Source: Octopus sinensis (taxonomy: Eukaryota). From it: 64,000 nt of DNA. The stretch is taken from positions 51,398,001-51,462,000 of the forward strand of contig NC_043002.1 of NCBI RefSeq assembly GCF_006345805.1, written 5' to 3'. Positions 21,342 to 25,591 of the stretch are shown here, piece after piece (the stretch's first letter is position 1; each line of letters begins with the position of its first letter). The notes under the pieces were generated by a model. That model was given only the letters and a program-made list of their open reading frames with translations, was not told where the DNA came from and searched no databases. Position numbers and translations under genes: made by a program.

Positions 21342-21635
21342 AATAGTAGTGAACAAATGTTCGTGGCAGTGTTCACATTAAATTTGCTTTTGTTTTTACT
21401 TGAACTAGTCAAAAGATCTGCCATAACTCTTGTTTGAAGGCCTCCAAAATTGGTTGGTAGGAAGGGAAGAAAAAAGCCAGGGACGGGAGACCTGGCAGGT
21501 ATACGCGCAATAGAATGGGCACTATTAAAGGAGCTAAAGGAGGGCAGGTGACGGTACTTACACTGAACGACGGATAAAATTGGAATAGATTGAATGCTAT
21601 AATACTGTTGGTGGCGTTGGAGGGAGTTTGATACT

Positions 21636-21958
21636 AATGATGATGATGATGATGATGATGATGGTGATGAAGATGATAAAGATGATGATGATGATGATGA
21701 CGATTAAGAGGCGAAGGAAGGGGAGAAGGAGGAGGAGGAGGAAGAGAATGAAGAGAAGGAGAAAGAGAAGAAGGAAGTGGAGGAGGAGAAAGAAGAGGAG
21801 AAGGAAGAGGAAGTGGAGGAGGAGAAAGAAGAGGAGAAGGAAGAAGAAGAGAAGAAAGAGGAGGGGAAGAGGAGAAGAAGAAGAAGAAGAAGAAGAAGAA
21901 GAAGAGGTGGAGGAGGAGGAGGAGAAGGAGAAGAAGAAGGAAGAGGACGAAGAAGAGT
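21636..21958. repeat. (GAT)n followed by a GAA/GAG polypurine tract
   Basis: Direct observation. Confidence 0.9.
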
Positions 21959-22299
21959 GTTAACATTGTTTTGCTTAAATGCTATATTGTGTTACGGAAT
22001 AAATCTGTGTGTAAAAGATGGACGCAAACACCTTGCATTTATAGCAATATATTCGTAGATGAAAAAGGGACCCGGCGAAACACTTTCAGTTTTGAGATAG
22101 AATTTTATCCGTGACCTTTTTAAATGGTCACAACGACACTGCTTATGAATCTTTTACAGATAAGGGCTTAAGTAAACTGCTTAGTCTAATTTGCATATAT
22201 AACGCATTATTATCAGCAAATGTGATTTATACATTGTACTTTCGTCAATAGTGGGTTTTTTTTTGTTTCTTTTTGACAATGCTGTACTGTATCTATTAC

Positions 22300-22695
22300 C
22301 TTTCACAGTTACTGAGCTGTGGTCATGCCGAGGTAACGCCTTGAAAGGTTTCAGCTGACAAAATCGACCCCGGTGCTTTTTTTTAGGGCTGGTACATATT
22401 CTACCGATCTGTTTTGTCATAAACAATTGATAAGTGGTGTCAAAAACAAAGTAGACACAAACACGCACGCACGCACGCACACACGCACTCACACGCACTC
22501 ACACACACACACATTTACATACTTATTTACATAAATGTATCCACACAGTTTCCTTCAAGTACATTCACTCGTAAGGTATTGGTCGCCCCGAAGTTATATT
22601 TGAAGACACTTGCTCAAAGTGTCGTGAAGTGGGACTGAACCCGAAACCATGTGGTTACAAAGCGAGCTTCTTAGCACAATAGCTATGCTTGCCTC
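22300..22695 (-). mobile_element. Diverged CORE-like SINE family B
   Basis: gaagacacttgctcaaagtgtcgtgaagtgggactgaacccg matches the family head region. Confidence 0.7.
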
Positions 22696-22878
22696 TATAC
22701 ACGCGCGCGCGCACACACGCACACATACATACGTACGTACATATGTATATATATACATATATATTATATATATATACTTAATAAAAAAAAGCGGAGAAAA
22801 AAGGCAATAAGAAAAATCAACGCGAGGATGTGGTACATGCAAAGTATTAAAAGGACGCTCAGAGGTGCAAAGAAATGG

Positions 22879-22915
22879 TGTTTGATATTTCGAGCAAAAC
22901 TCTTCTTCAGAGACA
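22879..22915 (-). ncRNA. Minimal type I hammerhead-like motif in a Penelope-type terminal repeat (about 22780-22990)
   Basis: Minus strand tgtct-CTGAAGA-agagttttgctc-GAAA-ta-TC-aaaca; same family as the 42539 and 63126 motifs. Confidence 0.6.
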
Positions 22916-23024
22916 AGAGACAGAGGAAAGTCCAATAGAAAATGAAGACGGAGGAAAAAAATTGTCAACAATTCACGTGTATTTACATACGGCTGTCAGT
23001 TCGCATCAAAGCGTCTTCTGTGAA

Positions 23025-23068
23025 CCGGTAGATGCGCATTTCTCCCTCTTCCCCACCTTCAATAGCGG
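23025..23068 (-). ncRNA. Degenerate hammerhead, left arm of the 23008-23256 fold-back
   Basis: Minus strand ccgcta-TTGAAGG-...-GAAA-tgcgc-ATC-taccgg; stem III ATGCGCAT is palindromic; core and stem II damaged. Confidence 0.5.
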
Positions 23069-23191
23069 ATACTAAAGAGAGGTAACGGTGAGCTGACAGA
23101 AAGCCTTAGCATTATGTAAAGCAGTACATCCTAATTACTGATTCAGAAAGTTAAGGGTTTCTTTCAGCTCAGAGTTACCTCTCTTTGTTAT

Positions 23192-23240
23192 CCGCTACTG
23201 AAGACGGAGGTTTATTAAGCCAGAAATGCGAATCTAGCGG
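23192..23240 (+). ncRNA. Type I hammerhead ribozyme candidate, right arm of the fold-back
   Basis: ccgcta-CTGAAGA-cgga-ggttt-att-aagcc-a-GAAA-tgcga-ATC-tagcgg; perfect 6-bp stem I, AUC site at 23232-23234. Confidence 0.7.
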
Positions 23241-23406
23241 TCCACGGAGAGCGCTTTCAGCCAACAACTGTGGATTTATACTTTTTACCATAAACCAGAA
23301 TTTTCTCTCCACGATAAGCTGAAATATGTTACTAACGTATTTGAAGAAACCTAGAGTTTGTTTATTTTCCATCACTGCTTCGCGTCTGTACTCACAAGTG
23401 TGTGTG

Positions 23407-23545
23407 TGTGTGCGTGTGTGTGTGCGTGTGTGTGTGCGCGTGCGTGCGTGTATGTGTGTTTGTGTGTATCATTGCGAGTGAGCGTGTATATTTTTTGTGT
23501 GTATATGTTTGTGTAGCTATATATGTATACATATATATATATATG

Positions 23546-23618
<73 letters not shown>

Positions 23619-23740
23619 GTATATATATAGCTACACAAACATATACACACAAAAAATATACACGCTCACTCGCAATGATACACACAAACACACATACACG
23701 CACGCACGCGCACACACACACGCACACACACACGCACACA
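23407..23740. repeat. Perfect ~117-bp inverted duplication around a (TA)n centre
   Basis: Arms ~23407-23524 and ~23624-23740 are exact reverse complements, including non-repetitive atcattgcgagtgagcgtg. Confidence 0.9.
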
Positions 23741-23766
23741 TATATATATATATTATATATATATAT

Positions 23767-23801
<35 letters not shown>

Positions 23802-23823
23802 TATATGCACACACACATACACG

Positions 23824-23915
<92 letters not shown>

Positions 23916-24019
23916 TATATATAATATATATACGAGTGAATGGACAAATGAAATACGGGCACTCAACAAATTTATTGACAGTTACATGTCTGGATAAAAA
24001 CAGTTTGATTCAAATTCGT

Positions 24020-24060
24020 TGGTACTCTTAAGCTTCAAGTGCGATGCTAGTCGTCAGCCA
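24020..24060 (-). ncRNA. Hammerhead-like motif (GAAG variant), left arm of the 23991-24175 fold-back
   Basis: Minus strand tgg-CTGACGA-ctagcatcgcactt-GAAG-cttaagag-TA-cca. Confidence 0.6.
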
Positions 24061-24105
24061 TTTTGAATTTGAAGCTGAATTATTAATTTGAATTAAAATT
24101 CAAAA

Positions 24106-24146
24106 TGGCTGACGATTAGCATTACGCTTGAAACTCAAGAGTACCA
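24106..24146 (+). ncRNA. Type I hammerhead ribozyme candidate with a canonical core
   Basis: tgg-CTGACGA-tt-agc-attac-gct-t-GAAA-ctc-aa-gag-TA-cca; stems I-III form, GUA site at 24141-24143; stem I can extend through aaattc/gaattt. Confidence 0.75.
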
Positions 24147-25004
24147 ACGAATTTGAACCAAACTATTTTGATCCATAATATATATATATATAAAGGAAAC
24201 AACTATTTCGAATGAGACACCATATTAGTTTTCATTTAGTTTTGCTTACCAACTGCGGTTGGTAATGAGCAGTTGACTAAATTATTATTTTCTTGTGAAG
24301 ATCTGGTGTTCTGAAGTGATTATGCAATCGTCTTTATAACGATTATTGCACAATATACTAGTATACGCTAGTGAAACACGTGTAAAGACTACGTAATTTA
24401 TGATGTTCTAATGAAGTGTTTAACAGAACCTCCTGTTTTATTCCTTTGTAGATATATTCTATAATAAGCATTACATGGAAAACGCACCGGAGATTTATTG
24501 CTGATAATGTTTGTCTGTGACCAGTTTTATGACGTCAATGTACCAGCAAACATTCCTATTATTACCATTGTTGTCATTGCCGACACCCAAGACTACAAAA
24601 GACTACAAGCATCACATTTTAAGCCATGTGATATCAGCAGAAGGAATTAAATCTGCAAAAGAACTCACTGTGGGAAAATGTTGTTGTTGTTGTTTTTGGT
24701 GTTGGTGGTGGTGGTGGTGGTGGTGAGTGATATTTAACTCCAGGTCATCTCTAAACGAGCAGGCTTATCTCTGATCAGAGGATTTGACGATGACCAATTC
24801 TGTCTTTAGGACTACATTTCACAGCATTACTTAACGTGTCATTTGGAGGAGATATGGCTGCTGTCTCATTTTCTCTAGTCTATAGTTATTTTGGTGATGG
24901 GACCAATTATGAAAGCAATGTATTTGTGATCGTTTGTCGTTATGGTTACACGCAAAAACATACGCACATGTATATATGAGAAAAGAAATTAAAGAAATAT
25001 AGGA

Positions 25005-25316
<312 letters not shown>

Positions 25317-25591
25317 GTGTTGCTTTCTAGCTAGTATATTAAAAGGTGGATGAAAGTGGCAAGAATGGTACGAGTGAAGGGACTTACCCTGAGCATACGC
25401 CAGTAGTTGAGGAAAAGGAAAGGAAAAAAAACACCTGCTCTAAAAGTCAGGGTGCCCATGGCTTTTATGAGATTTTTCCATGGGCAGCCCTTGCATGTTT
25501 CCTTCCCACTGAGGATTACACATTGTTGAATTTTTTCTTTGTTTCCATATGCTAATCTTGCTTACACGCAAAACCCTCACAACAACACACA

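Follow-up and report, generated by a model that had tools for sequence, protein, structure and literature searches.

Introduction

The described systems closest to the element reported here are Penelope-like elements (PLEs) and retrozymes. Insertions of PLEs are strongly 5'-truncated, form partial tandems, have an adjacent inverted 5'-truncated copy and a tail of 30-40 bp, and are biased towards microsatellites, according to those parts of Craig et al. (2021, PMC8557442) that deal with insertion structure; there, hammerhead motifs are located in the pseudo-long terminal repeats (pseudo-LTRs) and the origin of the tandem and inverted structure is called 'still undefined'. In vitro, both strands of DNA are cut and then extended by a PLE protein (PMC11167929, in its account of the enzyme). 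Minimal dimeric hammerheads with a helix II of 6-8 bp are present in PLEs, and in Schistosoma opposite-strand pairs of minimal hammerheads lie 100-700 bp apart, as set out in sections of Cervera and De la Pena (2014, PMC4209133). Retrozymes are presented as PLE derivatives in the relevant part of a recent preprint (Li, Clavereau and Pollet 2026, bioRxiv 10.64898/2026.07.22.740005). Here we describe a retrozyme-like element in a stretch of 64,000 nucleotides (nt) of the Octopus sinensis genome (assembly GCF_006345805.1, contig NC_043002.1; C6:51398001-51462000), hereafter called the window. We conclude that window positions 23006-23399 contain two 5'-truncated copies of this element joined head to head, and that they were likely joined at insertion by a PLE enzyme.

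A preliminary description of the locus had proposed an 'ambisense' hammerhead fold-back, the second of its kind beside a palindrome at 24 kb, and had taken the recurrence of this architecture in two families as a sign of a mechanism. The head-to-head layout is the published architecture of PLE insertions and not an 'ambisense ribozyme' design, and neither the mechanism nor this kind of element is new to the literature. On our interpretation the odd 'ambisense ribozyme fold-back' would be explained as the ordinary footprint of PLE retrotransposition on a small ribozyme-like parasite, and similar palindromes in the O. sinensis genome could be read likewise.

Two truncated copies of one unit meet at the locus

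We searched the O. sinensis genome (2.7 Gb, 13,516 contigs) with the locus itself. Positions 23008-23257 matched their own minus strand with 72% identity (E 5.3e-28), far beyond chance, which bears out the imperfect inverted repeat reported near 23130. The strings and coordinates quoted in the preliminary description were all present in the sequence. Because a 396-nt contig of run X2, which has another organism label, spans 23008-23377 with six differences, the palindrome is not an artefact of one assembly.

The arms are partial copies of a unit of about 333 nt, for which a profile hidden Markov model (HMM) is described below. The right arm (23119..23361, plus strand) is a 5'-truncated copy covering profile positions 64-332 and reaching the fixed 3' end of the family (nhmmer E 3e-45). 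The left arm (23006..23143, minus strand), also 5'-truncated, starts at profile position 64 and extends to roughly 215; beyond that, the outer (3') portion of the unit has been lost or replaced. The minus-strand nhmmer match there covers 22950-23143 (E 4.5e-31) and the self-match stops at 23008; the left arm is reliable only to about 23006, because 22808-22975 is a different, extremely high-copy repeat, as judged from contig depth. Depth over 22808-22975 rises to about 105,000 in run X1 and 11,600 in run X2, compared with flanks of about 30 and 4, and other copies of this repeat have an A-rich run on the left. It probably bounds and truncates the left arm. The junction between the arms, which is the centre of symmetry (23119..23143), consists of 25 nt common to both, over which the plus and minus nhmmer matches overlap.

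Past the 3' end of the unit there is a tail (23362..23399, plus strand) in which the unit restarts and then stops at a microsatellite. The repeat of the unit start occupies 23362-23393, about its first 31 nt, after which a (TG)n run begins; the (TG)n-type microsatellite (23399..23470, plus strand) adjoins the 3' end of the right arm. In local alignments of 23362-23400 with the starts of six full-length copies, four gave alignments of 31-34 columns in which there were 4-8 mismatches or gaps, and the highest score was 41. A run-on of this type was also found at locus L015 and in part at L019. The extent first given for the fold-back, 23008..23256, was too small, as the right arm reaches 23361 and the tail about 23399. 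The only open reading frames of at least 150 amino acids that overlap 23006-23399 start at 23392 in the microsatellite, with none in the arms.

Each arm contains a hammerhead-like motif. The motif in the right arm (23192..23240, plus strand) has a perfect 6-bp stem I (ccgcta, 23192-23197; tagcgg, 23235-23240), the core string CUGAAGA (CTGAAGA, 23198-23204), a weak helix II (GG/CC), GAAA (23223-23226), the loop UGCGAA and AUC ending at 23234; cleavage is predicted after C23234. The motif in the left arm (23025..23068, minus strand) has decayed, as had been claimed. Its core reads UUGAAGG, with U at C3 and G at A9, and its stem I is mismatched and broken. The string ATGCGCAT lies at 23032-23039, and the palindromic stem III noted for this arm is retained in that the loop palindrome AUGCGCAU is intact. 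Both copies are long-dead relics; the motif of the left arm is broken, and that of the right arm is predicted to be weak or inactive.

The unit belongs to an old, small family

The first search with the window element identified approximately 10 other loci with 71-82% identity. At eight of the 10, a single segment of about 130 nt was matched, seven by both query arms and one (L015) by one arm. L008 holds both arms, and a partly offset minus match at L007 represents a weak second arm. Because eight of the 10 loci match one segment only, the repeat is a directional unit and not a palindrome. Extended alignments gave a non-coding unit of about 333 nt, and eight copies were used to build a family HMM of 333 positions. 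With a single-orientation query (L003) there were 42 matches with 67-84% identity, 40 of 73 first-look candidates in the 2.7 Gb having been scored. The family is old and small.

There were 69 matches to the profile, including six partial cross-matches in loci of a sister lineage. Forty-one of them end at position 327 or beyond, and their starts range from 2 to 285. Because the ends cluster and the starts are scattered, the unit has a fixed 3' end and is truncated at the 5' end. In the aligned copies, a (TA)n, (CA)n or (TG)n run comes directly after the 3' end (...AAAGTTTGTTTAT), unless the sequence continues without a break into the start of another unit. The G+C content of full units is 37-39%.

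Two subfamilies were recognized by their motifs: CCGCUA/UAGCGG with AUGCGCAU (subfamily A) and CYUCUA/UAGGGG with AUGCAU (subfamily B). The exact word CAGAAATGCRCATCTAG occurred 29 times in the genome, compared with 0 for the reversed control, and 22 of the 28 new loci that it revealed had no match to the unit profile. These form sister lineage C, with a unit of about 340 nt (for example L114:1338-1673, L110:1353-1687 and L122:1339-1682), a similar layout and a long extended stem I; here too there are partial tandems and inverted partners, and units end at microsatellites. The lineage C motif has stem I AUGCUA/UAGCAU and helix II GCC/GGC, with the flanking A's and the loop as in A and B, and a core of CUGACGA that has mostly decayed at the CpG to CUGACAA. 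We know of no record of this family, no search having been aimed at a named description of it.

The family resembles metazoan non-LTR retrozymes, as these are characterized in portions of Cervera and de la Pena (2020, PMC7229834) and bioRxiv 10.64898/2026.07.22.740005, in several respects. The unit is non-coding and its 333 nt fall within their range of 170-400 nt; its G+C content is low; its type-I hammerhead-like motif has a one-bp helix III and a palindromic tetraloop (subfamily B: A-UGCA-U); a mismatch at the base of helix II has a precedent in the axolotl HHR_Amex2 (U.U); and autonomous PLEs occur in the same genome. It differs in consisting mostly of single 5'-truncated copies, partial tandems and inverted pairs instead of long tandem arrays. 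It also differs in that its motif is not scored by the Rfam type-I model and in being old (67-84% identity) and small.

Covariation supports a hammerhead-like motif

In its family ground plan the motif opens with a stem I of 6 bp, followed by CUGA(A/G)GA, a single additional nucleotide and a helix II of 3 bp. After an A and GAAA come the palindromic loop, UC and finally the second strand of stem I. The right arm in the window has the full conserved hammerhead core (C3 U4 G5 A6 N7 G8 A9, G12 A13 A14, A15.1-U16.1, H17), and the left arm fails at two positions (U3, G9). Core columns are among the best kept across alignments of 34 and 48 copies.

We counted base-paired cells in these alignments. 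The 34 rows came from 35 segments, of which L040, with its 5' half missing, was excluded. In this alignment 71.4% of cells were paired, compared with 67.0 ± 1.4% in shuffled alignments (0 of 500 reached the observed value) and 19-40% in slid controls. In the alignment of 48 rows from two lineages the values were 81.8%, 67.9 ± 1.4% (0 of 500) and 23-40%. Stem I cells were paired in 75% (34 rows) and 85% (48 rows), against 19-40% in the slid controls for the whole structure. Pair types in the 48 rows include AU 18/CG 16/UA 4/GC 1 in stem I and CG 15/GC 11 in helix II; the types seen in stem I were AU/CG/UA/GC and GC/GU/CG/UG/UA/AU. The stems covary while the core letters persist in lineages that can scarcely be aligned by the unit profile (no match at 22 of 28 loci).

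Loop 3 is palindromic, AUGCAU in subfamily B and AUGCGCAU in subfamily A and lineage C, and many copies read ...GCACAU there, consistent with CpG decay. In the window this palindrome is intact in the left arm and broken in the right arm (AUGCGAAU). The earlier claim of a hammerhead in the right arm stands for the core letters and the perfect stem I; it does not stand for helix II, which is only 2 bp (GG/CC), for the broken loop 3, or in the Rfam comparisons given below. The identification is partly supported, by the motif letters and the covariation. We lean towards the view that ancestral source copies self-cleaved, and consider it improbable that the right arm in the window still does so.

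Head-to-head arrangement recurs in unrelated families

Neighboring matches no more than 300 nt apart were classified by orientation, head to head denoting a minus copy to the left of a plus copy, with 3' ends outward and with 5' ends that adjoin or overlap. The 33 loci analyzed were chosen regardless of arrangement, 28 from the single-orientation query (with the window's own two rows excluded) and five from an exact 16-mer. We found 12 loci with a head-to-head arrangement, none with a tail-to-tail arrangement and eight with partial tandems (binomial p 0.0005 for 12 versus 0). The 26 loci of lineage C had eight head-to-head arrangements, one tail-to-tail arrangement and nine tandem junctions. 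The tail-to-tail exception, at L106, was probably produced artificially by the internal palindrome of the unit.

The palindrome at 24 kb (23991-24175; 92-nt arms, 85% complementary, 1 nt apart) belongs to another family. Locus L001 corresponds to window positions 21500-24765 (L001 coordinate + 21499 = window coordinate), and the family HMM matched it at 22950-23361 only, which confirms that the two elements are unrelated in sequence. At 39 other scored loci of the 24-kb family, a minus arm was directly to the left of a plus arm in 11 cases and the reverse order was found in none. This family, with 1115 first-look candidates at 86-93% identity, is much more abundant and younger than the family studied here; most of its copies are single arms with a fixed start point, and their 3' ends adjoin (TA)n. 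No Rfam hammerhead match was obtained at the 24-kb palindrome when 21500-25500 was scanned at E<=10. In the genome there were 65 matches to the hammerhead model RF00163. Among them two pairs lie on opposite strands, each in minus-then-plus order, and one pair lies in tandem at a distance of 431 nt.

Because head-to-head geometry recurs in unrelated families, it reflects a mechanism and not an accident. That much of the earlier interpretation is retained; the mechanism is not new, and the layout is no 'ambisense ribozyme' design.

Penelope-like elements and a proposed route of insertion

There were 5029 candidates for the GIY-YIG domain (PF01541) in the genome, and 147 of the 150 that were scored pass the cut-off. 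Many candidates have frames of exactly 781 amino acids. Two long open frames were examined (764 and 867 amino acids; L148:1001-3295, plus strand, and L149:737-3340, minus strand), and both have RVT_1 followed by a C-terminal GIY-YIG domain.

The likeness between the studied family and PLE insertions extends to 5' truncation, pseudo-LTR-like partial tandems, an inverted 5'-truncated copy at the 5' end, a tail of ~30-40 bp and association with microsatellites (PMC8557442, for the features it details). The pair in the window is also similar to the opposite-strand motif pairs 100-700 bp apart in Schistosoma, within what PMC4209133 presents of them. Unlike a PLE, the unit has no reverse transcriptase/GIY-YIG frame, so that it is non-autonomous, and in sequence it is similar to none of the 14 PLE loci that we examined. 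Its motif also differs from the minimal hammerheads of PLEs, at least as they are drawn in PMC4209133, in having a helix II of 3 bp instead of 6-8 bp and an extra A after helix II.

We propose that the unit is a non-autonomous, retrozyme-like element and that a PLE copied it in trans. The PLE enzyme would start reverse transcription at each end of the DNA break, and complementary DNAs (cDNAs) growing toward each other from the two break ends would leave their 3' ends outward and their truncated 5' ends in the center. Two converging minus-strand cDNAs, or one snapped-back cDNA, may then be joined at the self-complementary hairpin of the unit. In ancestral source copies the motif would self-cleave as a dimer by means of the palindromic loop 3.

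The L1 process of twin priming, reportedly set out by Ostertag and Kazazian in 2001, is said to involve priming of reverse transcription by the second DNA end as well, giving inverted segments with a junction inside the insertion. Priming from the second DNA end and inverted segments that meet inside the insertion are the points of likeness. The two L1 segments represent separate regions of a single RNA, which makes an inversion, whereas the arms here cover the same part of the unit, each with the element's proper 3' end (an inverted duplication).

Junctions, kinship of the arms and alternative origins

Both arms in the window begin at profile position 64, and the 25 nt that they share are the unit's own internal hairpin (profile ~62-88), as can be seen in the family alignment. 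At the corresponding place the sister lineage carries another sequence, which by eye, without a count, again looks self-complementary. L008 is joined at the hairpin as in the window (profile 67 and 70), and other symmetric junctions were found at L023 (226/226), L030 (11/28) and L036 (15/29). In total, both arms start within 17 profile positions of each other in five of 14 pairs, compared with ~1.4 expected under a rough uniform model; the other nine pairs are asymmetric. In 10 of 11 pairs the identity between the two arms was above the mean of their identities to the remaining copies, and the arms belong to the same subfamily in all five pairs in which loop 3 is kept in both. Two antisense cDNAs anneal only where the template is self-complementary, and a single cDNA can snap back there; the data do not separate these routes.

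A further reading, which we put forward tentatively and consider rather unlikely, is that the family and its sister lineage carry a hammerhead variant missed by current covariance models, with unpaired A's on either side of a 3-bp helix II and with a palindromic loop on a helix III of one pair, and that the symmetric-hairpin pairs (the window, L008, L023, L030 and L036) record how PLE insertions finish, with two minus-strand cDNAs from both break ends, or one snapped-back cDNA, being joined at template hairpins. If true, the still undefined step in which the inverted repeats of PLEs arise could be approached at the level of sequence. The third of the inverted pairs that are joined at internal hairpins (5 of 14) are a clue to how arms are ligated.

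Joining at insertion has to be compared with a later origin of the second arm, by local inverted duplication of a single insertion (replication template switching or fold-back at the hairpin) independent of the retrotransposition machinery. The position of the junction, exactly on the self-complementary hairpin with both arms starting from profile 64, speaks for this model, and the younger palindrome 300 bp away (23407-23544/23603-23740, 97%) indicates that the region may be palindrome-prone. It does not readily account for head-to-head pairs at 12 of 33 other loci, with varied and in many cases asymmetric junctions and never tail-to-tail. The arms are as diverged as any two copies of the family, which fits an origin at insertion, and the PLE architecture published in PMC8557442, as far as it is described there, needs no extra event. 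We therefore consider local duplication unlikely.

Somewhat less likely still are two independent, adjacent insertions in opposite orientation, for example with a common microsatellite or the hairpin of the first copy as target. The arms in the window are not each other's nearest relatives, and the association of the family with microsatellites could attract repeated insertions. However, independent insertions should give head-to-head and tail-to-tail pairs equally, and the counts were 12 and none. With so few copies in the family (73 first-look candidates in the genome of 2.7 Gb, and exact core words 13 and 29 times), it is very unlikely that two would adjoin by chance, and the agreement of subfamily in five of five pairs also argues against independent insertions.

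A DNA transposon of the fold-back type or of the miniature inverted-repeat transposable element (MITE) type, with the arms as terminal inverted repeats and the hammerhead letters present by chance, is largely refuted and in our judgment very improbable. It would fit the palindromic shape and the absence of any Rfam hammerhead match, the only match on the element being the generic hairpin MIR9408 (30.4 bits against a cut-off of 90). Terminal inverted repeats do not bound every copy, however: 21 of the 33 loci have no inverted partner, most copies are single and directional, with a fixed 3' end, 5' truncation and partial tandems, and the stems covary and the core is kept across lineages barely aligned by the unit profile. 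We give equally little credence to a selected 'ambisense' device, transcribed and self-cleaving on both strands and not a by-product of insertion, for although the geometry recurs in several families, the arms decay neutrally (72% identity; left motif dead, right weak) and junction positions and arm lengths vary freely among loci.

Evidence against a retrozyme-like origin

The following observations weigh against the interpretation that we favor, namely two copies of a retrozyme-like unit joined at insertion by a PLE enzyme. The unit HMM had no match at E<=10 in any of the 14 PLE loci. Only one locus (L046) has two near-complete tandem units, with two motifs; otherwise tandem structure amounts to the partial tandems at eight of 33 loci and the nine junctions in the 26 loci of lineage C. 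The two arms in the window are 71.8% identical to each other and 75.5-77.3% identical to L021. Because they are not nearest relatives, a single-event origin of the window pair is unsupported, this test having little power at such age.

Other observations concern the motif. The preliminary description had counted a lack of score with covariance models among the grounds for refutation, and no Rfam hammerhead model scores the motif. When the whole window was compared with Rfam at the gathering score, no family reached threshold. At E<=10 there were 47 Rfam matches in 21500-25500, two in 22990-23270 (281 nt) and 125 in the 10 loci with the best-kept motifs, and none of these was to a hammerhead; apart from MIR9408 on the element, the matches were low-complexity sequence or look-alikes of hairpin microRNAs. 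RF00163 does detect other hammerheads in this genome (eight over the cut-off, 74 scored of 265,813 rough candidates). Because the models miss a covarying motif, censuses based on Rfam would undercount elements of this type.

Predicted folding did not distinguish the motif either. Five copies of it fold no better than shuffled sequences (z +0.33 to -1.43). The right-arm motif had z +0.33, with stem I alone retained in the minimum-energy fold, and the minimum-energy fold of the left arm was not hammerhead-like. Folds of whole units gave z -0.94 and -2.03, the latter (L110) being the only fold distinguishable from shuffles. Helix II has no more than 3 bp, GGC/GCC or, with a CG-to-GC swap, GCC/GGC in lineage C. 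An A.A or C.A mismatch flanks it, and the extra A on its 3' side, before G12, is unusual. Conservation of the core (0.85) was not in excess of the unit mean (0.80). Of the 69 profile matches, none starts within three positions of the site at which cleavage is predicted; this result speaks neither for nor against cleavage.

The covariation itself has to be read with two qualifications. The 48-row set drops 10 of the 34 rows of subfamilies A and B and two of the 26 lineage C loci, the most decayed or indel-bearing ones, and the percentage paired is raised because these rows were dropped. In addition, the covariation counts refer to sequences, not to events.

Neighboring repeats and other hammerhead-like sequences

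A near-perfect palindrome lies immediately beyond the element (23407-23544/23603-23740; 138-nt arms, 97% complementary, 58 nt apart). It consists of (TG)n and a short unique stretch, with (TA)n at its center, includes the (TG)n flank of the neighboring element, and is much younger than the 72% arms of that element.

On the other side, 22455-22678 (minus strand) is a dispersed repeat, with 70-76% identity at L004, L007, L016 and L019. It reads as SINE-like (short interspersed nuclear element), with a stretch resembling a transfer RNA B box and a putative (TG)n tail that appears as (CA)n at 22452-22527. An outer inverted repeat (22452-22524/23396-23468) was considered and rejected as part of the element, its left half being likely the tail of this SINE-like repeat.

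Elsewhere in the genome there is a canonical type-I hammerhead family, GUAC-CUGAAGA-GACCC...GGGUC-GAAACAUGUGUC-GUAC, of which eight of 74 scored sequences exceed the RF00163 cut-off; examples are L051 (C13:29988995-29989039) and L056/L057 (C16:25146363, 25146794). The tandem pair and the two opposite-strand pairs mentioned above belong to this family. Both PLE frames share a hammerhead-like string that lies nearby on the opposite strand (L148:4826-4859, minus strand; L149:4254-4292, plus strand). This string, found by a crude regular expression only, comprises CUGAGGA, a 5-bp helix II, AA and GAAAUGAAUC, and it is like the motif of the studied family in having extra A's between helix II and GAAA.

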